This document shows, piece after piece, positions 14,861 to 62,638 of a DNA stretch of 64,000 nt; position 1 is the first letter of the stretch; every line of letters starts with the position of its first letter. Origin of the DNA: a virus; IMG/VR virus record IMGVR_UViG_3300036792_000267, positions 1 through 64,000 of that record. One strand, written 5' to 3'. The notes beneath the pieces are model-generated. The model had not been told where the DNA came from and did not search any database. It was given only the letters and a program-made list of their open reading frames with translations. A program made the translations under genes and the position numbers.

Positions 14861-15486
14861 CAGGAGTCGACAACAACCCGGCGGTGGGCCGGTACTACCC
14901 GTACGAGTTTGTTTGCGGGGACGCTCTCAAGCTGGACTCAGGCGGGCGGCCCGTGTCGGCCCTGGAGCCTGGTTACCTGCGGCAGTTCGACCTCATCCAC
15001 CTGGGCGGCCCGTGCCAGCCCTGGAGCAAGATGATGAACTGCCGCCCGGGGCTGCGCGAGAAGTACACCGACCTCATCGGGCCGCTGCGCCCGGTGCTTG
15101 AGGAGAGCGGCGTGCCCTACGTCATCGAGAACGTGGAGGGCGCCCCGCTCAGGGACCCCGTCTGGCTGTGCGCGGTGGCGTTCGGCGTTCCCGAGCTGCT
15201 CCGGCACCGCGGGTTCGAAACCGGCAACGGCCTGGTCATCCCGCCGTTGTACCACCCTAAGCACCCGCTGAAGGCCAGCAAGGCAGGTCACTGGGTGCCG
15301 GGCACGGCGATGTCCCTGGCCGGCCACTCCGCCCCCATCGCCAAGGTCCGCGAGCTGATGGGCGTCACGCGCTACGTCCCGCGCGAGATGCTGATGGAGG
15401 CTGCCCCCGGCTACATGACCGCTTACGTCGCCGCGCACGCCGTGGCCTACCTGAGCCAGGAGGCGGCGTTATGGCCGATGCGGTAG
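14764..15486 (+). CDS. DNA cytosine-5 methyltransferase-like protein
   Basis: VLDIGCGAG, GGPCQPWS, VIENV, RHRGFE. Confidence 0.8.
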   Translation: MGRHGRGGRKRVLDIGCGAGISSDGYAAYFDVTGVDNNPAVGRYYPYEFVCGDALKLDSGGRPVSALEPGYLRQFDLIHLGGPCQPWSKMMNCRPGLREKYTDLIGPLRPVLEESGVPYVIENVEGAPLRDPVWLCAVAFGVPELLRHRGFETGNGLVIPPLYHPKHPLKASKAGHWVPGTAMSLAGHSAPIAKVRELMGVTRYVPREMLMEAAPGYMTAYVAAHAVAYLSQEAALWPMR

Positions 15487-38429: not shown

Positions 38430-38941
38430 ACCGCATGTTCTTGAGGACCGCCGTCGGCTTCGACCTGGACAGCACGCTGTGCGACACGCGGCACCGCTGG
38501 CACCTGTCGCCGATGGCTGACCCGGAGTCAAGCTGGGCCGTGTACTGCGCAGCGCGGACGGGCGACACGCCTATTGCCGGCACCGTGGCTGCGGCCAGGC
38601 TGCATTACCTGTATAACCAGATCCACATCTGGTCAGGCAGTGAGTCGTCATCGGATGCGGTGACCCGCCGGTGGCTGAACCGTCACCGGGTCCCGTTTGA
38701 CGACCTCCGGCAGCGCCCGCTCGGCGACGACCGGCCCAACGCCGAGGTCAAGATCGGCTTCATCGAGGAGCTGCGGGCCCGCGGCATCGAGACGGTGCTG
38801 TACTTCGAGGACATTCCGGACGTGGCCGCGGAGATCCACGAGAAGACCGGCGTTCCCGTCCTGGTCGTCAACCCCTGCTATCCCGAGGACCTGGATAAGT
38901 TCCGGCACGGCGTGCACGACGGCATGGGCGGCGGCTTGTGA
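38426..38941 (+). CDS. HAD-family phosphatase
   Basis: FDLDSTL, K, FED motifs. Confidence 0.75.
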   Translation: MNRMFLRTAVGFDLDSTLCDTRHRWHLSPMADPESSWAVYCAARTGDTPIAGTVAAARLHYLYNQIHIWSGSESSSDAVTRRWLNRHRVPFDDLRQRPLGDDRPNAEVKIGFIEELRARGIETVLYFEDIPDVAAEIHEKTGVPVLVVNPCYPEDLDKFRHGVHDGMGGGL

Positions 38942-39165
38942 GCGAGTGCAAGCACGAGATCGAGGAGGTGACCTGCTCGATGTGCCGTCCCAGGCACGCG
39001 ACGCAGGCGAGAGCCACCCGGTCCCCGGCGTTCGGCCCGTGGATTGTCGCCAGCTATGACGGTGAGTGCGCGGGCGGTTGCGGCCAGGGGGTTCGACGGG
39101 GTGACCAGATCCGGTCCGATGGCGCAGGGAACTGGCTATGCACGATCTGCGGGAACGACCAGTGA
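38938..39165 (+). CDS. Cys-rich hypothetical protein
   Basis: Coupled ORF. Confidence 0.6.
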   Translation: MSECKHEIEEVTCSMCRPRHATQARATRSPAFGPWIVASYDGECAGGCGQGVRRGDQIRSDGAGNWLCTICGNDQ

Positions 39166-39230
39166 GCGACAACGGGACGCTCCGGCTGAGCTGGTCGCCG
39201 TGTACCGTACACTCCTGGTGTGAAGACTTA
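39162..39230 (+). pseudogene. Remnant 5' end of PD-(D/E)XK nuclease gene
   Basis: MSDNGTLRLSWS duplicates GDDGALRLSWS at 39767-39799. Confidence 0.6.
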
Positions 39231-39792
39231 TGTACCAGGAGTGCCCCGAACTTGCAGTCGCTGCCATAAGTCCGACAGTGAAGTTGAGTTCCCGCCATAC
39301 CGTTCGGCTTACTGCGTTGTTTGCCGACCGCTGGCCAAGCAGGACTGGGCTGTCGGCAGCCGGACGACCATCCGTATTCAGGAGAGTGCTCAGCGGCTGG
39401 CCCGTCATCAGCGCGATCCGGACGGGGAGTGGCGTAAGGAACTGGACAAGCACTTGCGGTCTAAGTTCCATATCACGGTTGACGACTATGACCGGATGTA
39501 TGAAGCTCAGCACGGTCTGTGTGGTATTTGCGGGAAACCAGGTCGCGGGTCTGCCAGATTCGATGGCAGCGAAAGGCGTCTTGCTGTTGACCATGACCGA
39601 CGTTGTTGCCCTGGTGACAAGTCCTGCGGGAAGTGTGTTCGCGGCCTTCTCTGTGGGTCGTGTAACCCTAAGCTCGGTTTTTACGAGCTGTTCGAGAATC
39701 AATGTCAGTCCTGGCGGAACCGCCGTGTTCAAGTGGAGGAGGTGGTGCTAGATGTCCGGAAAGATTGGCGACGACGGAGCCCTGCGGCTTAG
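39220..39792 (+). CDS. Endonuclease VII-type HNH homing endonuclease
   Basis: QHGLCGICG, LAVDHD, VRGLLCGSCN; lower GC than flanks. Confidence 0.88.
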   Translation: MKTYVPGVPRTCSRCHKSDSEVEFPPYRSAYCVVCRPLAKQDWAVGSRTTIRIQESAQRLARHQRDPDGEWRKELDKHLRSKFHITVDDYDRMYEAQHGLCGICGKPGRGSARFDGSERRLAVDHDRRCCPGDKSCGKCVRGLLCGSCNPKLGFYELFENQCQSWRNRRVQVEEVVLDVRKDWRRRSPAA

Positions 39793-40589
39793 TTGGTCCC
39801 GCCTCCGGCTTCATTTAGCATGACGAGTGCCCCGCTAAAGGGGACCTGCTGCGCAAGCACAAGTCGCCGGTGCAGGACGCGCGCAACTACTTTCACGGCA
39901 ACGTGGTTGACCTGGCCATGCGCCGCTGGCTGAGCCAGGAGGACCCGGAGGCCGGGTGGATGGCCGCCCAGGTCGACGCGATCTTCGATGAGTCCATCGG
40001 CATCGCCAGGGACTCTGGTGACGGCATCGTCCGGTGGAAAGGCCCCAACGACAAGAACGAGACCCGCGAGTTCTGCCGCGAGCTGGTGAAGCGGCTGGAG
40101 CCTATCCTGTGCAAGTACGCTATCCCGTTTGAGTGGCAGCCCGCGGAGCGGTTCTCTGTGCCCCTCCGGATCGAGGACCTGAACGGGTCGATGCGCGAGA
40201 TCATCCTCATCGGCGAGATGGACTTGCTGGTGCGTGACCGCGAGGGGCGGTACGCGGTCTGGGACCTGAAGGCGACCAGGGACAACAGCTACTACAAGAA
40301 GGTGCTCGGCCAGCTCGCGTTCTACGCCATCGCCGTGAAGGCGATGAAAGGCCAGTTCCCGGTGATGACGGGACTGATTCAGCCGATGTGCGACCAGCGG
40401 GTGCTCCCGGTCACCGTCGACCATGACGCGGTAGCCCAGATGGCTGGCCGCATTACCAAGGCCGCCCGCGACATCTGGGCCGGCAAGCTCGCCCCAAAAG
40501 CTGACAATGCCGGGTGCGCGTACTGCCCGGTGAAGCACGCCTGCCCCAAGTTCAGCTCCGGCGGCCGGGCAGCCCTGGCTGCGGCGTAG
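39752..40589 (+). CDS. Cas4/RecB-like PD-(D/E)XK exonuclease, interrupted by 7 nt at 39815-39821
   Basis: LSWSRLRLH/DECP, GEMDL..DLK, QLAFY, CAYCPVKHACP; GGAGGAGG RBS. Confidence 0.8.
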
Positions 40590-50218: not shown

Positions 50219-50399
50219 CGAGAACGACAGCCTGCGGCGGTGGATTGTCTACGTCTACAAGGACGACAGGTGCACGTGCGACTACGCCTGGAAGAGCCTG
50301 GGCAAGGAGTACGGCGTCAGCTACGGCAAAGGCTGGGTCCGCCTGACTACGGCGGCGGACTGCCCACACCACGCCGCCCGATTAAAGGTGCGTGGCTAG
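50205..50399 (+). CDS. Hypothetical protein (TTA at 50382)
   Basis: CTC..CPHH. Confidence 0.55.
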   Translation: MALVSENDSLRRWIVYVYKDDRCTCDYAWKSLGKEYGVSYGKGWVRLTTAADCPHHAARLKVRG

Positions 50400-56196: not shown

Positions 56197-56270
56197 AGGG
56201 GTGTAGCTCAGTAGGTCAGAGCAGCGGTCTCCAAAACCGTGTGCCGCGGGTTCGAATCCCTCCTCCCCTG
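56197..56270 (+). tRNA. tRNA-Trp(CCA)
   Basis: Cloverleaf, loop CTCCAAA. Confidence 0.85.
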
Positions 56271-56282
56271 CGACCGTCAGCA

Positions 56283-56557
56283 ACGGCGAGAGCCTGAGCA
56301 GGCGCATGTCAACCGCATATTGACACTTCCACAGCGTGAGCATCTGCGGCGGGCGCCAACCCGCCGCAAGTTTCGGCGTGGTGAAAGACAATGCAGCTAC
56401 TCCCGGGGAGCAGCAGCCGTTAAAGGCTGGGGTCGCCGCAAGGCGGTCCTGTACCGGGCACCGTGCCAGTTTGAAAGCTTGCCGTGCCGTCATCAGGCGG
56501 AGTACACGGCAGCCAAGCGTGACGGCCGGGGCCGCGTTCACACCGTGGTCTCGCCGT
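56283..56557 (+). ncRNA. Candidate large structured ncRNA (~275 nt)
   Basis: Closing stem ACGGCGAGA/TCTCGCCGT plus several internal hairpins. Confidence 0.55.
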
Positions 56558-56566
56558 CGCGCCTAT

Positions 56567-56639
56567 GGGGTCTTAGCTCAGCTGGAAGAGCATCTGCTCG
56601 GCAGACAGAAGGTCACGGGTTCAAGTCCCGTAGGCTCCA
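56567..56639 (+). tRNA. tRNA-Ala(GGC), C33
   Basis: G3:U70, loop TCGGCAG. Confidence 0.85.
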
Positions 56640-56775
56640 CTGGACCGGATGGCAAGTCTGTCGCCATGTGTAGAGGGCCGTGACGGGTACCTCAGCGGCG
56701 GTTATACCGAAAGCCGGGTGTCTCCGGTGGCAAAGCGGCAGGTTTCGCGGGACATCTCCGTCATCCGGTTCTCCT

Positions 56776-56848
56776 GGGGCTTTAGCGCAGCTGGTAGCGC
56801 GCTGCATTCGCACCGCAGAGGCCGCGGGTTCGACTCCCGCAAGCTCCA
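56776..56848 (+). tRNA. tRNA-Ala(CGC)
   Basis: G3:U70, loop TTCGCAC. Confidence 0.88.
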
Positions 56849-57124
56849 CGTGGCGGACCGTGGCACGGCATCCGCAGCAGGGCCGATCACCCTGTGCACA
56901 GGTAACCGGCCTTGAATGCCCGGCGCGAGTCCAAGCGTCCGGGGCGGAGGCACCCGCCACTCCAATTCCCGGTGAGTAAGCCGTGGCAGGCTGAGGGGCC
57001 GGGGCAATGCGGAACAAGGCACGTGCTGGTCTGCCCCGTCGGTTCCAACCTCCGGGCCTGCTGGCCAAGGTCGCCTCGCCAGGCGGCTGATGCGGCGATG
57101 CAGGACCATGACGACCAGATTCAA

Positions 57125-57198
57125 CTAGCTATGGCGCAGCTTGGTAGCGCATCGCGTTCGGGACGCGAGGGCCGCAGGTTCAAATCCTGCTAGCCAGA
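57125..57198 (+). tRNA. tRNA-Pro(CGG)
   Basis: Loop TTCGGGA. Confidence 0.88.
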
Positions 57199-57199
57199 C

Positions 57200-57274
57200 T
57201 GGGGTGTAGGGAAGATTGGTCATCCCGCCTGCCTTGGGTGCAGGAGATCGCCGGTCCGAGTCCGGTCACCCCGA
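57200..57274 (+). tRNA. tRNA-Pro(TGG), C55
   Basis: Loop CTTGGGT, T-loop TCCGAGT. Confidence 0.85.
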
Positions 57275-57320
57275 CCCGTGTGAGTCAACCGACACACGTA
57301 AATCCCCATCGGTTGAGCCT

Positions 57321-57394
57321 GGGGCCTTAGCTCAGTTGGTAAGAGCGTCTGGTTGAAACCCGGAAGGTCGGTGCGTCGAGTGCACCAGGTCCCA
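57321..57394 (+). tRNA. tRNA-Phe(GAA)
   Basis: Loop TTGAAAC, T-loop GTCGAGT. Confidence 0.82.
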
Positions 57395-57408
57395 CGCAGT
57401 AACACAAT

Positions 57409-57481
57409 GGGGATGTGGCCGAGCGGCTACAGGCTCCTGCCCTCCAAGCAGGCTACGCGGGTTCGATTCCCGTCATCCCCT
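57409..57481 (+). tRNA. tRNA-Gly(TCC), C33
   Basis: Loop CCTCCAA, U73. Confidence 0.82.
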
Positions 57482-57588
57482 CTGGTACGGGCCAGACTCA
57501 TAATCTGGTTGCGTGCAAGCGGCTGTCGCGCCGCGGCCGGGCCGCCTGACGGGGGGCGACACCTTCGTCAGGGGCGCCGGTTGTTTAC

Positions 57589-57661
57589 GTGCCGCTAACT
57601 CAATTGGCAGAGTACCGTCCTCTTAAGTCGGGAGTTGGGGGTTCAAGTCCCTCGCGGCGCA
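57589..57661 (+). tRNA. tRNA-Lys(CTT)
   Basis: Loop CTCTTAA. Confidence 0.88.
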
Positions 57662-57744
57662 CTGGAGGCGGTCCGGAGACCGCGCCCGTGGCTGACAACG
57701 ACGTACAGGTCTCCTGCTGTCAGCGGGCCCGCCTCCAGCTTTTC

Positions 57745-57820
57745 GGGCGAGTAGCAGAACCGGCATATGCGGCGGCCTCAAAACCCGTGTCTCCTGCGGG
57801 TTCAAGTCCCGCCTCGCCCA
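57745..57820 (+). tRNA. tRNA-Leu(CAA)
   Basis: Loop CTCAAAA, short variable arm. Confidence 0.85.
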
Positions 57821-57917
57821 CGCGGCTGGCAAGGCCGTTCTGCGAATCCTTGCCCGGTCCCCTCTGCGGGAGGAACAGGTCCGTCAATCCGGGGTCAGCA
57901 AAGAGCCTCGGCAACTA

Positions 57918-57989
57918 TGGAGTATGGGGTAATCGGCAGCCCGGCAGATTCTGGCTCTGTCAGTCTTGGTTCGAGTCCAGGTACTCCAG
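57918..57989 (+). tRNA. tRNA-Gln(CTG)
   Basis: U1-A72, loop TTCTGGC. Confidence 0.88.
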
Positions 57990-58079
57990 CGAGAGCAGCA
58001 GGTCAAGGTGCATCTCGATCTCGTCATTGGTGATGAGGCTGACAGCCAGGTCGATGAAGTCAAGTTCGTCCATACTCAT
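57960..58079 (-). CDS. Small acidic peptide (39 aa)
   Basis: MSMDELDFIDLAVSLITNDEIEMHLDLLLSLEYLDSNQD, downstream of DinB-family gene. Confidence 0.45.
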   Translation of the reverse strand: MSMDELDFIDLAVSLITNDEIEMHLDLLLSLEYLDSNQD

Positions 58080-58108
58080 TAAGTTCGCGAGCAGGCCGAA
58101 CTGTGAGG

Positions 58109-58654
58109 TCAGTCAGGAACGTAGAGGTGGTGCGGGAGGATGTTCAGCGTGTAAGTCCCGTCGAACCGCGGCATGCTGCCGGCCAGCTCCCCCAGGTGCC
58201 AGTAGACGTGGACCGCTAGGTGCTCCCACACGGCCCCGCCGGTCAGCAGGGACACCGGCACCCCGGCAGGCGCGGGAGCGTCCCACTGGCTGAGGTCGAA
58301 CTCGTCCAGTACCCGCAGCGCCTTGGTGACCGTCTGGCAGAACACGCGCAGCAGGACCACCTTCGGGAACGTCTCCCGGTCGACGCTGGCTGCCTTGCTG
58401 ACGGCACTGGGCTCGGCCAGGTTTGTCTCGTTGAACACCTGGTGGACCGAGCGGCTGAGGACCGTCCGCCGCCCGTCGAGCCACGAGCTGAACAGGTCAG
58501 CCACGCAGGCCAGGTGCCCGATCGTCCAGGCAGCGGAGAACCCGGTCGGGAGTTCTTCGAAGAACTCGTCGTTACTGACCGGCTCCAGGCCGAGTAGCAG
58601 TATGTTGCCGCTGCGGTCGATCTGCCGCGCGACGACTTGCTTAGCAGTAGTCAT
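58109..58654 (-). CDS. DinB/YfiT-superfamily metalloprotein
   Basis: SAAWTIGHL...HLAVHVYWHLGEL. Confidence 0.8.
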   Translation of the reverse strand: MTTAKQVVARQIDRSGNILLLGLEPVSNDEFFEELPTGFSAAWTIGHLACVADLFSSWLDGRRTVLSRSVHQVFNETNLAEPSAVSKAASVDRETFPKVVLLRVFCQTVTKALRVLDEFDLSQWDAPAPAGVPVSLLTGGAVWEHLAVHVYWHLGELAGSMPRFDGTYTLNILPHHLYVPD

Positions 58655-58665
58655 GCTTTTACTAC

Positions 58666-58739
58666 GCCCCGGTAGCTCAGCCGGAAGATGCGCTCGCTTC
58701 GTAAGCGAGAGGTCCCCAGTTCAACTCTGGGTCGGGGCT
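58666..58739 (+). tRNA. tRNA-Thr(CGT)
   Basis: Loop TTCGTAA. Confidence 0.85.
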
Positions 58740-58859
58740 CGGTCAGGCTGAGGCAGGGGAGGCCCTTCACCGGGTCGCACTAGGTTGCCCGCAGCCCAGT
58801 AGCTTGGGCACGGGAGAAGGATGCCGGGCAGCACGGCCCGGGTGTAGGCCTGACAACAA

Positions 58860-58943
58860 GCCCGAATGCTGCAATCGGTAGACTGACCCGCTTGAGGAGT
58901 GGGTGTCCTTCGGGGCGTGCGGGTTCGAGTCCCGCTTCGGGCA
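58860..58943 (+). tRNA. tRNA-Leu(GAG)
   Basis: Loop TTGAGGA, long variable arm. Confidence 0.85.
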
Positions 58944-59040
58944 CCTGGGGGAGATCCGGTGTAGCGCACCGGCTGGGGGCCAGGGCCCCTGGTAGTTCAA
59001 AAGTCGCTGACAGCCCTGGCAGAAAGAACACCCCCTCTAC

Positions 59041-59113
59041 GCCGGCTTAGCTCATCGGGCAGAGCGCCCGCCTTGTAAGCGGAAGGTGACCCGTTCGAGT
59101 CGGGTAGCCGGCT
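59041..59113 (+). tRNA. tRNA-Thr(TGT)
   Basis: Loop CTTGTAA. Confidence 0.88.
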
Positions 59114-59213
59114 CGGAGGCTGCATGCAAGGTACGGCGCGCTAACGCGCGGGACAGCGCAGGAACCCGAGTACCGTCGTAAACCGACTGTCCTTGCAGCC
59201 TCCTTCAGCTCGC

Positions 59214-59287
59214 TCCGGGGTGGGTTGTGCGGCATCCCGTCTTGACTTTGGATCAAGGGCACGCCAGTTCGATTCTGGCCCCCGGAA
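59214..59287 (+). tRNA. tRNA-Gln(TTG)
   Basis: Loop CTTTGGA. Confidence 0.8.
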
Positions 59288-59296
59288 CAAGCACAT

Positions 59297-59370
59297 GCCC
59301 CGGTAGCTCAGTTGGCGAGAGCGTTTCCCTGGTACGGAGGAGGTCCCGCGTTCGATTCGCGGTCGGGGCT
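59297..59370 (+). tRNA. tRNA-Thr(GGT)
   Basis: Loop CTGGTAC. Confidence 0.85.
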
Positions 59371-59381
59371 CGCAAGATCAT

Positions 59382-59454
59382 GCCGACGTGGTGCAGCTGG
59401 TGGCACATCGCCTTGCCAAGGCGGAGGTCGCGGGTTCGAATCCCGTCGTCGGCT
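59382..59454 (+). tRNA. tRNA-Gly(GCC)
   Basis: Loop TTGCCAA. Confidence 0.88.
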
Positions 59455-59590
59455 CGTGTACCCCGCCGTGGCCACCGGGTAAGGGGGTTCAGCACATGCC
59501 CGGGTCGCGCCCGGCACGGTGGCACGGCTGCCCTGGCAGCCTGCTCTCCTGACGACAGGGGACAAGGGGGCTCAGCCCTCCCAGGGACGC

Positions 59591-59674
59591 GGGCGGGTGG
59601 CGGAATAGGCAGACGCGCACGGTCCAGGCCCGTGTATCCCGCAGGATGTGAGGGTTCAAGTCCCTCCTCGCCCA
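59591..59674 (+). tRNA. tRNA-Leu(CAG), C33
   Basis: Loop TCCAGGC, long variable arm. Confidence 0.85.
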
Positions 59675-59765
59675 CTTTCGGGTCCGCTCCCGTGGCCCGG
59701 GGGCGTCGCGCATCGCGCCGCGGCGGTTCCAGTCCTCCTGCTAGCGGAGGGCGAACGGGAGGCCC

Positions 59766-59856
59766 GGAGGGATGGCACGAGTGGCTTAAGGCGCTGTCCT
59801 GCTAAGGCAGAGGGTCTGCGAGAGCGGCCCCGCGGGTTCGAATCCCGCTCCCTCCG
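59766..59856 (+). tRNA. tRNA-Ser(GCT)
   Basis: Loop CTGCTAA, long variable arm. Confidence 0.88.
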
Positions 59857-59941
59857 CTTCTGTACCGGATACCAGCCAAGTCCGTTAGGTGGTGACGCAG
59901 GTACAGCGCCCGCGGGAGACGGCAATCCTTGGCGGGCACCT

Positions 59942-60027
59942 GGAGGGTTCGCCTAGTCCGGCCTATGGCGCTGCGTCGGAAGCGCAGTTGGTTAACAGCC
60001 TCGCGAGTTCGAATCTCGCACCCTCTG
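59942..60027 (+). tRNA. tRNA-Ser(GGA), C33
   Basis: Loop TCGGAAG. Confidence 0.85.
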
Positions 60028-60030
60028 CCC

Positions 60031-60122
60031 CGGAGAGGTAAATCGAGTTGGCCTACCGATCGCGGTCCCGAAAACCGTCAGGGGGTTCGTCCCCCGTGTG
60101 AGTTCGAGTCTCACCCTCTCTG
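60031..60122 (+). tRNA. tRNA-Ser(CGA), C33
   Basis: Loop CCCGAAA. Confidence 0.82.
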
Positions 60123-60315
60123 CGCATGGCTTGAGGCGGTACCCGCGGGCCGCTGCAGGTACCGCCTCCGTAATCGCCAGGCGAATGAATCTGCTCGGAT
60201 TCAGCTTCGAGACCAGACTCGGTGCCTTGCAGGCGGCTGTTACCGCCTGCACCCGAAAGCATACATACGGTTACGATCTTGAGCAAGCGGCGAAATAGCT
60301 CAAGATGTCTGGCAC

Positions 60316-60388
60316 GGGCGGGCAGCTCGATGGTTCGAGCAGCTTCCTGATACGGAGAAGGTTGGAGGTTCAAGTCCTCCTCCGCCCA
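60316..60388 (+). tRNA. tRNA-Ile(GAT), C8
   Basis: Loop CTGATAC. Confidence 0.82.
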
Positions 60389-60399
60389 CGTACGACCGG

Positions 60400-60473
60400 A
60401 GGCCGGTAGCTCAGCTGGTCAGAGCGACACGCTTATAACGTGTGCGTCAGGAGTTCAAGCCTCCTCCGGCCTA
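60400..60473 (+). tRNA. tRNA-Ile(TAT)
   Basis: Perfect stems, loop CTTATAA. Confidence 0.85.
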
Positions 60474-60476
60474 CGA

Positions 60477-60552
60477 CGCGGGGTAGCTCAGTTGGCAGAG
60501 CAGCCGGCCCATAACCGGAAGGTCGCGGGTCCGAGTCCCGTCCTCGCTACCA
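60477..60552 (+). tRNA. tRNA-Met(CAT), initiator-like, C33 C55
   Basis: C1 mismatch, loop CCCATAA, encoded CCA. Confidence 0.85.
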
Positions 60553-60553
60553 C

Positions 60554-60627
60554 GGGCCGCTAGCTCAACAGCGAAGAGCAGTTGCCTTTTAAGCTTCAGG
60601 TTCCGGGTTCGAGCCCCGGGCGGCCCA
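60554..60627 (+). tRNA. tRNA-Lys(TTT)
   Basis: Loop CTTTTAA. Confidence 0.8.
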
Positions 60628-60641
60628 CTAGCCTGGTTCCT

Positions 60642-60788
60642 GTGAAGACTCTGGCCTGGCTCCTCGATGAAGCCCTGGACCGGCTCCCGTGCCGCGAGGA
60701 CGGCCGGTGGCGCTGGTACGGCGAGTGGGGCTGCCGACTGGAGAACAGGTTTCCTGTCCTGCGCGAGTGGATGTACGAGCGCCGGTAG
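60642..60788 (+). CDS. Small Trp/Arg-rich hypothetical protein
   Basis: MKTLAWLLDEALDRLPC..; stop lies inside next tRNA. Confidence 0.45.
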   Translation: MKTLAWLLDEALDRLPCREDGRWRWYGEWGCRLENRFPVLREWMYERR

Positions 60789-60852
60789 CTCAGCCGGATA
60801 GAGCGGCTTCCTTCTAAGAAGACGGCCGGGGGTTCGAATCCCTCCCGGCGCG
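60779..60852 (+). tRNA. tRNA-Arg(TCT)
   Basis: Loop CTTCTAA. Confidence 0.88.
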
Positions 60853-60863
60853 CGCATGAACAT

Positions 60864-60941
60864 GGTCTTGCAGAGCAGTCCGGAGTGCTCGCCTGCCCCT
60901 CAAGCAGGAGATCGTCGGTTCGAATCCGTCCAGGACCACCA
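60864..60941 (+). tRNA. tRNA-Glu(CTC), C8 C33
   Basis: Loop CCCTCAA, encoded CCA. Confidence 0.82.
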
Positions 60942-60942
60942 A

Positions 60943-61016
60943 GCCCCCGTCGACTAGCGGCCTAAGTTACCGCCCCTTCAAGGCGGCGGACACCGGTTCG
61001 AATCCGGTTGGGGGCA
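60943..61016 (+). tRNA. tRNA-Glu(TTC), C33
   Basis: Loop CCTTCAA. Confidence 0.85.
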
Positions 61017-61050
61017 CGTGGGCATCAGGATTTATCCTGGTGTCCTTCGA

Positions 61051-61126
61051 CGCGGAGTAGGGGAGTTCGGTCGTCCCCGCGGCGCCCATAACGCCGAGAT
61101 CGCGGGTCCGAATCCCGCCTCCGCCA
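61051..61126 (+). tRNA. tRNA-Met(CAT), initiator-like, C33 C55
   Basis: C1:C72 mismatch, loop CCCATAA. Confidence 0.82.
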
Positions 61127-61230
61127 CGGGAAGGAACTGCCCAGCTCCCTTGCATCCGGATGCATCGGCACGCGCGGCTGGCGTTCCGGCACAGCGGCCC
61201 GGCCCCGGTCGTTCCCAAACGGGGCCTCTA

Positions 61231-61303
61231 TCCGGTGTGGCGCAATCGGCAGCGCAACTGACTGTTAATCAGAGGGTTCCCGGTCCGAGTCCGGGCACCG
61301 GAG
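61231..61303 (+). tRNA. tRNA-Asn(GTT), C55
   Basis: Loop CTGTTAA. Confidence 0.88.
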
Positions 61304-61412
61304 CGCGTGGGCCTGGGGCCTGCGGGATACAGCCTGGTCCGCGGCCGGGCCCGGGTCCCGTTGGGCGGAGAAGCAGCCATACCCAGGGAAGCGGGGGTGC
61401 CCCGCACATCAT

Positions 61413-61487
61413 GGTGACGTAACTCAGCATGGCCAGAGTGCTGCCTTGTCACGGCAGAAGTCGCGGGTTCAAATCCCGTCGTTACCG
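61413..61487 (+). tRNA. tRNA-Asp(GTC)
   Basis: Loop TTGTCAC, G73. Confidence 0.88.
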
Positions 61488-61637
61488 CGTGCCCCGTCGT
61501 CGCACGATGACCGTGCAGGCCAGGGCGAACAGCGCTAGCAGGCCGATGACTGGCCATGTTAGCCAGTGCAGCCCGGCCGCCTTCAGCAGGTCATCAAGGA
61601 TGAAGCCGAGCGCGACGCCGACCAGGATGAACAGCAT
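61482..61637 (-). CDS. Small two-TM membrane protein (51 aa)
   Basis: MLFILVGVALGFILDDLLKAAGLHWLTWPVIGLLALFALAC. Confidence 0.55.
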   Translation of the reverse strand: MLFILVGVALGFILDDLLKAAGLHWLTWPVIGLLALFALACTVIVRRRGTR

Positions 61638-61639
61638 CG

Positions 61640-61777
61640 TTAGCCGAGCCCGGCGCGACGCCGCCGCTCGGCGTGCTCGAAGTCACGGATGCGCCGGATG
61701 GCGAGGTGGCCGCCGAACTTGAGGCCGGTCGCGATGCCAGCGCCGAAGACGGCTAGCAGCAAGATGAAAGTGCCCAC
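61640..61777 (-). CDS. Small membrane protein (45 aa)
   Basis: MGTFILLLAVFGAGIATGLKFG..RRRR. Confidence 0.55.
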   Translation of the reverse strand: MGTFILLLAVFGAGIATGLKFGGHLAIRRIRDFEHAERRRRAGLG

Positions 61778-61831
61778 GTGATTAAACGGTACGTCACCCC
61801 CTGGTCTCTTTACCAGGGGCAAGCAAGACAT

Positions 61832-61905
61832 GGCCGTGTAGCTCAGCAGGCTAGAGCGTTTCCATGACACGGAAGAGGTCCCTGGTTCAAGTCCAGGTAC
61901 GGCCA
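61832..61905 (+). tRNA. tRNA-Val(GAC)
   Basis: Loop ATGACAC. Confidence 0.88.
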
Positions 61906-61906
61906 C

Positions 61907-61979
61907 GCGCGCGTAGCTCAACGGATAGAGCTGCAGTCTACGGAACTGTGTGTTGGAGGTTCGAGTCCTCTCGTGCGCA
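61907..61979 (+). tRNA. tRNA-Arg(ACG)
   Basis: Loop CTACGGA. Confidence 0.88.
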
Positions 61980-62039
61980 CTGGACGGCAGGTGAGCAGGC
62001 TGACACCGCCTTCGGGCTCAGCCCCCTGCCGTCTTTCAA

Positions 62040-62113
62040 GTCCGGTTAGCTCAGCCTGGGAGAGCGCTGCCTCCACACGGCAGGCGTCGGGGGTTCAAAT
62101 CCCTCACTGGACA
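62040..62113 (+). tRNA. tRNA-Val(CAC), C33
   Basis: Loop TCCACAC. Confidence 0.85.
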
Positions 62114-62114
62114 C

Positions 62115-62190
62115 GGTGGGATTTGCCGTCGAGGGAAGGCGCAGGGTTGTGGTCCCTGCAAGGCGGGTCCGACTCCCGTATCTCACCCCA
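62115..62190 (+). tRNA. tRNA-His(GTG), C55
   Basis: G-1:C73, loop TTGTGGT, encoded CCA. Confidence 0.82.
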
Positions 62191-62191
62191 A

Positions 62192-62271
62192 AGCGACAGT
62201 GGGCGGCGGCACGCCCAGCGGCCTGTAAAGCCGTGGCCTTGGCAGACCTGGGTCGGCACCAGGTGTCGCTA
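62192..62271 (+). tRNA. Divergent tRNA-Tyr(GTA)
   Basis: Loop CTGTAAA; atypical T-loop GTCGGCA. Confidence 0.65.
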
Positions 62272-62364
62272 CGTTAAGGTTTTCCCGAGAAAAGGAGAGC
62301 CTATGCCCAGGTACACGATTCCCTGCGTCGCCCACTGTGAAAGCGGGGCATTAACGCAGGTCTT

Positions 62365-62438
62365 GCGCTCGTAGCTCAGTGGACAGAGCACCGGCTTCCG
62401 GAGCCGGGTTGTCGGAGGTTCGAGTCCTCTCGGGCGCG
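62365..62438 (+). tRNA. tRNA-Arg(CCG)
   Basis: Loop TTCCGGA. Confidence 0.88.
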
Positions 62439-62442
62439 CTAT

Positions 62443-62519
62443 GGCGGTATGGCCGAGTGCGGTTCAGGCACACGTCTGCAAAACGTGGTACCCGGGTTCG
62501 ACCCCCGGTACCGCCTCCA
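62443..62519 (+). tRNA. tRNA-Cys(GCA)
   Basis: Loop CTGCAAA, U73, encoded CCA. Confidence 0.88.
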
Positions 62520-62520
62520 T

Positions 62521-62594
62521 GACCCTGTAGCTCAGCTGGACAGAGCTGCTTCCCCCTAAGGAGCGAGTCGCTGGTTCGAGTCCAGCCAGGGCCA
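62521..62594 (+). tRNA. tRNA-Arg(CCT), C33
   Basis: Loop CCCCTAA. Confidence 0.82.
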
Positions 62595-62638
62595 CGTACG
62601 CCGGTGCTCACGCTGTGGCAGTTCCGAGGTCCAATTAC

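Follow-up and report, generated by a model that had tools for sequence, protein, structure and literature searches.

A seven-base insert containing a rare UUA codon, at the edge of an endonuclease VII cassette, is a strong candidate for programmed ribosomal bypassing in a Cas4/RecB-like nuclease gene of soil phages

The DNA analyzed here (the window, 64,000 nucleotides, G+C content ∼68%) is the first 64 kb of the complete 151,377-bp virus record IMGVR_UViG_3300036792_000267 (G000), in which terminal repeats are present. Its plus strand carries a gene for a Cas4/RecB-like nuclease that is not contained in one open reading frame (ORF). A 12-codon remnant of the native 5′ end (VSDNGTLRLSWS, 39162–39197), which matches the N-terminus of an intact sister (P0002/L033), is cut off from the rest of the gene by an endonuclease VII (EndoVII)-family gene (39220–39792; product of 190 aa), presumably for a homing endonuclease. 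The 3′ end of the latter encodes the ribosome-binding site of the nuclease, that is, the Shine-Dalgarno sequence GGAGGAGG (39735–39742), and overlaps its new start codon, ATG 39752. From there, a cassette-borne segment of 21 codons (MSGKIGDDGALRLSWSRLRLH, 39752–39814), which holds the family-invariant S, W, S, and R, extends to a CAT codon (39812–14), the putative take-off codon. The following four bases, TTAG (39815–39818), constitute the coding gap; frame 0 reads them as the rare leucine codon TTA, whereas frame +1 meets the stop codon TAG. A second CAT (39819–39821), the putative landing codon, is the resident gene's own histidine codon, and homology with intact alleles begins exactly here. 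The second nuclease segment (39822–40589) extends from GAC (DECPAKG...) to the stop codon TAG (40587–89).

In the frame set by ATG 39752, the first CAT is followed by TTA (39815–17), GCA (39818–20), and TGA (39821–23). The +1 frame, opened by the second CAT (HDECPAKG...), comprises 256 codons up to TAG 40587–89. Because this frame is closed upstream by TAG 39816–18 and holds no ATG, GTG, or TTG before GTG 39870, the change of frame is confined to positions 39815–39823. Re-reading the sequence confirmed this arrangement, including the strong ribosome-binding site and the CAT-TTA-G-CAT junction, as it had been described in an earlier analysis of the window (the sequence-only reading).

Intact relatives (L003, L033, L006, L030, L034, and Microbacterium phage Magritte gp244) read R-x-H-D-E-C-P across the junction without a gap; thus, as alignment with homologues lacking the insert demonstrated, the window contains exactly seven extra bases, CAT TTA G, which precede the resident histidine codon. 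In L003, an 82% identical relative from a 152-kb IMG/VR genome, one ORF reads ...RISWSRIRNHDECPAKG; the 94% identical intact sister L033 has ...SWSRLRNHDECP, and Magritte gp244 has LRLSWSQLRVHEECK. Magritte was the sole match by protein among isolated phages, and near-identical DNA was found in none of them. The two pieces of the window meet on the same histidine column of the alignment. Among 42 aligned intact homologues, the residues S, W, S, R, E, and C do not vary, the histidine is at least 90% conserved, and the spacing SWSxxRxHxEC is without exception in ∼100 intact homologues. The sequence-only reading had held that a 7-nt hop from CAT to CAT would restore the S-x-S..CP motif and supply the first of four iron–sulfur cysteines. 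The predicted junction indeed matches the invariant spacing, and all four cysteines (C20, C249, C252, and C258) are invariant in the family alignment.

The +1 frame matches the Pfam family PDDEXK_1 (PF12705) at 1.6e-16. Besides the cysteines, the first of which lies in DEC and the other three in a C-x2-C-x5-C arrangement near the C-terminus, the family alignment shows invariant D, E, D-L-K, and Q..FY. For the 94% identical intact sister, an AlphaFold model scores 91.8 in the predicted local distance difference test (pLDDT), with residues 8–29 in well-ordered elements. Among solved structures, the AdnA nuclease domain, ACE1/Cas4, RecE, and AddAB come nearest to it in fold (E between 1e-10 and 1e-6 for AdnA, ACE1/Cas4, and AddAB); a sequence search of the PDB gave no match. 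By motif and model, the protein is thus predicted to be a RecB/Cas4-like PD-(D/E)XK nuclease with an iron–sulfur cluster.

The same CAT TTA GC break was found in seven diverged lineages, whose nucleases are 58–82% identical to one another, and in at least 10 assemblies (JGI, NCBI, ENA, and Logan), all samples being soil metagenomes; this recurrence is far beyond chance. The window reads CTT CAT TTAG CAT GAC. L005 (Logan), L023 (JGI), and L031/L032 (two Logan runs) read CTT CAT TTAG CGC GAC, L011–13 (three Logan runs) CTT CAT TTAG CAC GAC, L010 (Logan, and an ENA contig of 56 kb) CTT CAT TTAG CAC GAT, and L008/L009 (two NCBI assemblies) CTG CAT TTAG CAT GAC. TTAG is therefore invariant, and the landing codon is CAT in two lineages, CAC in two, and CGC in three; intact sister L034 has CAC at the position where carrier L031 has CGC. 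A metagenome scan for the junction yielded one new carrier (L023) and 13 further matches, all due to chance. Pattern scans of IMG/VR revealed no additional carriers, and a scan of bacterial and archaeal genomes gave six chance matches, none of them in a nuclease. The frame-0 stop codon lies 2, 3, 10–11, or more than 30 codons past TTA, depending on the lineage; the signal shared by all carriers is therefore not this stop codon, but TTA. Matched take-off and landing codons around a stop, as put forward in the sequence-only reading, accordingly hold in part: the CAT-CAT pair is present in the window, but three lineages land on CGC, and the frame-0 stop is not conserved.

The codons at the junction are not those the phage prefers. 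In its confidently predicted genes, TTA accounts for ∼11 of 40,414 codons (∼0.03%), CAC outnumbers CAT (776 versus 117), and CTG outnumbers CTT (2233 versus 226), which makes minor codons of CAT, CTT, and TTA alike; CAT TTA GC is nevertheless invariant. The phage encodes 37 tRNAs, in an array at 56197–62595 of the window, which cover most codon families, but none of them reads UUA. Its leucine anticodons are CAA, GAG, and CAG, leaving UUA and CUA, the genome's two rarest leucine codons, without a reader. The remaining in-frame TTA codons of the window belong either to the ordinary ends of genes or to ORF extensions that are doubtful. At 15466–15473 and 50382–50399, in-frame TTA lies within the last few codons of genes, in one case as a TTATG overlapping the next start codon. 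Supply of tRNA-Leu(UAA) is limited by the host in the bldA system of Streptomyces. A WhiB gene, sought as a clue to the host, was not found.

The insert belongs to a mobile EndoVII cassette, of which it is the distal edge. The EndoVII gene of the window (Pfam PF02945 at 1.5e-13, and PHROG endonuclease VII families) has a G+C content of 57.6%, and of 59% at third codon positions (GC3), compared with a GC3 of ∼90% in neighboring genes. An intact EndoVII ORF lies directly upstream of the break in six of the seven carriers, with a ratio of nonsynonymous to synonymous substitution rates (dN/dS) of 0.1–0.2; in L008, the endonuclease has been lost. That the cassette is mobile follows from the nuclease tree, where the carriers are scattered among intact sisters (seven state changes are needed for seven carriers, at least six of them forced, and four carriers have intact sisters with at least 98% support), and from the disagreement between endonuclease and nuclease similarity: the EndoVII proteins of L031 and L010 are 85% identical, their nucleases only 58%. 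As the endonucleases of different cassettes are only 65–85% identical, the cassette is old. The insertion in the window lineage, in contrast, is recent, because the native 5′ remnant is kept there, its GTG overlapping the stop codon of an upstream small ORF, and none was found in the other carriers. The cassette replaced the start and the first 21 codons of the nuclease gene; the Shine-Dalgarno sequence serving the new start is kept as GAGGAGGTGGTGC in all carriers and in L006. The latter, like L007, has a different, HNH-type endonuclease at the same site (L006:2229–2978), upstream of an intact nuclease gene. This nuclease gene carries an in-frame 6-base insert with TTA (L006:3040–3054; TTC TTC TTA TTC CAC, SFFLFHGN compared with SFFHGN in relatives), which may be an immunity insert. 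Between the genes for a HAD phosphatase and the nuclease, the window encodes a 75-residue ORF with CxxC pairs (38938–39165), which is present in the relatives L005, L006, L011, and L034 and absent in L003, L008, and L033.

A cassette that lands in a gene may simply inactivate it. If the nuclease were dispensable, its body could still be intact because each invasion happened only recently and decay does not become visible before a carrier is lost or repaired, so that no recoding would be required. This explanation fits the scattered distribution of the break, in which carriers can have intact sisters up to 94% identical, the native remnant still present in the window, and a nuclease that is not obviously essential; moreover, the carriers were found by ORF-based searches, from which decayed copies would escape. 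The bodies, however, are open for 250–259 codons in all seven carriers, and the predicted hop products retain every one of the 45 family-invariant residues (44 in L023); the decay of the downstream ORF, which the sequence-only reading had considered a possible outcome, was thus not observed. Carriers do not have lengthened terminal branches relative to their sisters. The dN/dS was 0.52 among carriers, 0.51 among intact genes, and 0.49 between the two groups (0.11 between the window and its intact sister), where these NG86 estimates, inflated at high divergence (0.5–0.8) by GC3 bias, serve solely to compare carriers with intact genes. L008 retains the break and the open body even without the endonuclease. 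Furthermore, despite the age of the cassettes, CAT TTA GC is always kept, and the 5′ piece beyond the EndoVII stop codon (S-W-S-R-L-R-L-H) varies among them only synonymously (AGT/AGC, TCC/TCG/TCT, CGC/CGA/CGT/AGA, CTC/CTT, and CTT/CTG), which implies that this cassette-borne piece is translated and matters.

The same insert design was found in two genes that cannot be dispensable, both outside the window. PF02945 matches G000 at three places, 39448–39684 (+), 70802–71071 (−), and 87883–88146 (+). The second EndoVII gene (70763–71500, minus strand) is located upstream of, and ∼570 bases from, the major capsid gene (71638–72883, corresponding to L035:1239–2484; PF03864 at 9.6e-23). The latter reads ...LRGVV, ending on GTC GTT, followed by TTA AGT TGA, and its body (VEKFVTPE...) continues in the +1 frame from GTT 71699. 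In the relative G001, the capsid gene is contiguous at this position (GTC GTC GAG AAG, LRGVVEKF). The break is therefore an exact 7-base insert, GTT TTA A GTT, of the form X-TTA-R-X, and the predicted hop product is exactly the sequence of the relative. Searching IMG/VR for the capsid junction pattern returned only chance matches, in low-GC contigs. The third EndoVII gene (87469–88230, plus strand) is directly followed by the tape-measure ORF (2764 codons), ahead of which lie two gaps (88220–88300; L036:921–1001). The first reads TGG TTA GATCGCTT TGG and shifts the frame by +2; the second, nine codons on, reads GGT TTA ACATTCA GGT. Both are kept in G001, and the nine-codon piece between them changes only synonymously. 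A purine comes after UUA at each of the four sites, and the resulting UAR closes the +1 frame. A genome scan gave further X-TTA-gap-X candidates, such as G000 66346 (CAC TTAC CAC), which might join coding pieces.

Since a complete phage genome cannot lack capsid and tape-measure proteins, recoding at this design must work in the phage, and because both genes carry the same design, the prior for recoding at the nuclease site is raised considerably. Taken together, the comparative evidence strongly supports programmed recoding of the 7-base insert, and a mere knockout of the nuclease appears unlikely.

As to how the insert is passed, we infer that a ribosome stalled at UUA probably carries its peptidyl-tRNA-His seven bases forward, giving RLH-DECP. 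Translation would begin at ATG 39752 and proceed until CAU occupies the P site and the very rare UUA the A site. Decoding would stall there, given that the phage has no tRNA for UUA and that of the host is presumably scarce. The peptidyl-tRNA-His would then unpair, the mRNA would slide by seven bases, and the tRNA would re-pair on CAU 39819–21 (CAC or CGC in other lineages), so that decoding resumes at GAC and yields ...SWSRLRLH-DECPAKG..., the normal sequence of the family. Ribosomes that do decode UUA would terminate two codons later, and those slipping to +1 would encounter UAG. Such a hop explains why TTA and CAT are invariant and why the landing triplet is restricted to CAU, CAC, and CGC, triplets that are each able to form Watson–Crick or G·U pairs with the anticodon GUG. 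It is also the only displacement that reproduces the SWSxxRxHxEC spacing. Because the histidine shows at least 90% conservation among intact genes, whereas three of seven carriers have CGC, the landing codon seems to be re-paired with, but not translated, in carriers.

Several observations weigh against the hop or weaken its support. The three lineages with CGC lack a cognate landing codon, as CGC could pair with the histidine anticodon only via a central G·U pair. mRNA structure at the break was not significant (folding z −0.7); the weak 6-bp 5′ hairpin in the consensus fold could be a by-product of coding, as could the CP..KG hairpin. No Shine-Dalgarno-like stimulator was detected upstream of the take-off codon, where the mRNA reads CCUCC. 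That tRNA-Leu(UAA) is scarce in the host is assumed from codon usage alone. Insertions are often recent, so that intact bodies and normal dN/dS may in part reflect too little time for decay, and intactness is weak evidence especially for the window lineage with its native 5′ remnant. Finally, the variation between GCA and GCG is a synonymous one when read in frame 0, which is what a shift at an alanine codon would predict.

The last point bears on a +1 frameshift, which could occur in two ways: tRNA-Leu decodes UUA and slips to UAG, after which the next CAU, CAC, or CGC is translated (RLHL-H/R-DECP), or tRNA-Ala on GCA or GCG, with a slow YGA in the A site, shifts so that GAC is read (RLHLA-DECP). 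The downstream frame is indeed +1, GCN is followed in frame 0 by UGA or the rare CGA in every carrier, and Antonov et al were unable to exclude +1 shifting fully at the phiHau3 sites from the sequence alone. Either route, however, adds two residues within a motif of unvarying spacing, and re-pairing would be poor: anticodon UAA on UAG has a central mismatch, and anticodon UGC pairs badly with CAU. A leucine codon that is translated has no reason to remain TTA in seven of seven lineages. Neither can a +1 shift mend the +2 shift of the first tape-measure gap, and in the capsid gene the product of a hop already equals the sequence of the relative. We consider a +1 frameshift at the nuclease site quite improbable. 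A +1 frameshift at a stop codon, of the RF2 or antizyme type, was rejected, as the distance to the frame-0 stop varies by lineage and no slippery codon of the CUU-U type is present.

Translation could also start internally, at GTG 39870 in the window or at the methionine of DLMR in other lineages, giving an N-terminally truncated nuclease. Gene callers have picked such starts: seven broken nucleases are listed in public databases with 239–251 residues (P0003, P0017, P0023, P0044, P0050, P0074, and P0077), beginning at an internal methionine or valine and lacking both the first cysteine and the invariant motif of the N-terminus. In lineages with ATG, AAGGG is found a few bases upstream. This start is not conserved, however (CTG in the window), and GTG 39870 is without a Shine-Dalgarno sequence. 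The truncated protein would lose the invariant S, W, S, R, and E as well as the first iron–sulfur cysteine, all well ordered in the model (pLDDT 90–95), and DECPAKG, upstream of any such start, is conserved in all carriers; a product of this kind is very hard to reconcile with the data. Two more short entries, P0058 and P0022, were considered as broken genes and rejected; both are intact, and their lengths are start artefacts of gene calling.

That the seven bases are a sequencing or assembly error, as the sequence-only reading had allowed for, is hardly credible given their presence in so many separate assemblies of diverged lineages, and in a 151-nt Logan contig of another soil sample identical over 39805–39955, even though the window stems from a metagenome assembly and the cross-check is one between contigs (those of the likely source run barely cover the break, and one contig of an intact allele has a loose end at 39819).

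If ribosomes hop at the break, the question is what the insert is for. The sequence-only reading had proposed regulation, with the nuclease being made only when UUA cannot be decoded. By analogy with T4, the primary role of the insert is likely to be protection against self-cleavage, instead of or besides regulation; the DNA bearing the cassette would thereby be shielded from its own endonuclease. More tentatively, and as a possibility that we would stop short of calling probable, soil phages of ∼150 kb may carry a family of EndoVII homing cassettes that each end in a minimal, portable bypass element (take-off, UUA-R, landing), the efficient hop allowing them to invade even major capsid, tape-measure, and nuclease genes and leave these alive while the insert confers immunity of the site. 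If so, efficient short-range hopping would be a general, exploitable property in hosts poor in tRNA-Leu(UAA), and the phiHau3 and T4 gene 60 paradigms would be united.

Natural cases of programmed bypassing are so far very few: T4 gene 60 and its homologues, the byps of yeast mitochondria, and three terminase genes of Streptomyces phages. The nuclease locus adds a new gene family and seven natural replicates that are informative on the landing codon and on the position of the frame-0 stop, with a compact element of 13 nt, and, as in T4, it ties bypassing, here the short hop of the UUA type, to a homing endonuclease cassette. Seen alongside the breaks in the capsid and tape-measure genes, the locus suggests that the efficiency of bypassing can suffice even for the protein most abundant in the virion. 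Annotation is affected too, as gene callers shortened these nucleases in public databases. A literature search for a link between such gaps and endonuclease cassettes, or this nuclease family, found none.

Short hops over stop or hungry codons reportedly occur in E. coli reporters, in work attributed to Weiss and colleagues (1987) and to Gallant and Lindsley (1998). There, as proposed here, the peptidyl-tRNA quits a codon beside a slow A-site codon and re-pairs, a few bases downstream, on a codon that matches or nearly does. Unlike those artificial, low-efficiency constructs, the present design is natural, conserved, and found in a major capsid gene as well.

A close likeness is to the UUA-linked bypass of 7–10 nt proposed for the terminase genes of phiHau3 (g6/g7/g8) and of the StrepC.1 and S. 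catenulae prophages (Smith et al, 2013; Antonov et al, 2023, PMC10732093), in line with the parallel drawn in the sequence-only reading. Support for it comes from a full-length product in S. coelicolor and from a junction peptide identified by mass spectrometry in E. coli, with UAA in place of UUA (PMC10732093). In both systems, a rare in-frame UUA directly follows the take-off codon, a short, noncoding block shifts the frame at a junction that is highly conserved in gap-free homologues, and the context is rich in G+C and nearly devoid of UUA. The differences are also clear. The gene here encodes a Cas4/RecB-like nuclease instead of a terminase, and the genomes are those of uncultivated soil phages of ∼150 kb. 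The break was found in seven lineages, whereas the phiHau3-type gap is present in only 3 of 100 terminase genes (PMC10732093), and it is tied to a mobile EndoVII cassette, which has not been reported for phiHau3. No 5′ stem-loop with a Shine-Dalgarno signal was detected here, the landing codon varies naturally (CAU, CAC, and CGC), and a +1 stop codon overlaps every UUA (UUAR).

In the mobA/gene 60 region of T4, scattered insertions of recent date are seen, the gap is situated where the imported DNA ends and outlasts the loss of the endonuclease, and the insert blocks self-cleavage (Manning & Atkins, 2022, bioRxiv 10.1101/2022.08.31.505936; Bonocora et al, 2011, as cited in PMC5009743). The organization of the nuclease locus follows this scheme closely: a free-standing endonuclease gene in a conserved phage gene supplies a new start and an N-terminal piece, the gap comes after ∼20 codons of the downstream piece and borders the imported DNA, insertions are scattered and recent beside intact sisters, the endonuclease can be lost with the gap being kept (L008), and a poorly decoded codon follows the take-off codon. 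On the other hand, the gap is 4 nt long (a displacement of 7 nt) instead of 50 nt, it has neither a take-off stem-loop nor an internal Shine-Dalgarno sequence, its endonuclease is a member of the EndoVII family and not, like MobA, of the HNH family, and the upstream part of the gene is a dead remnant of 12 codons and not a functional split subunit. The break would thus be a system that works like that of T4 gene 60, without being a homologue of it.

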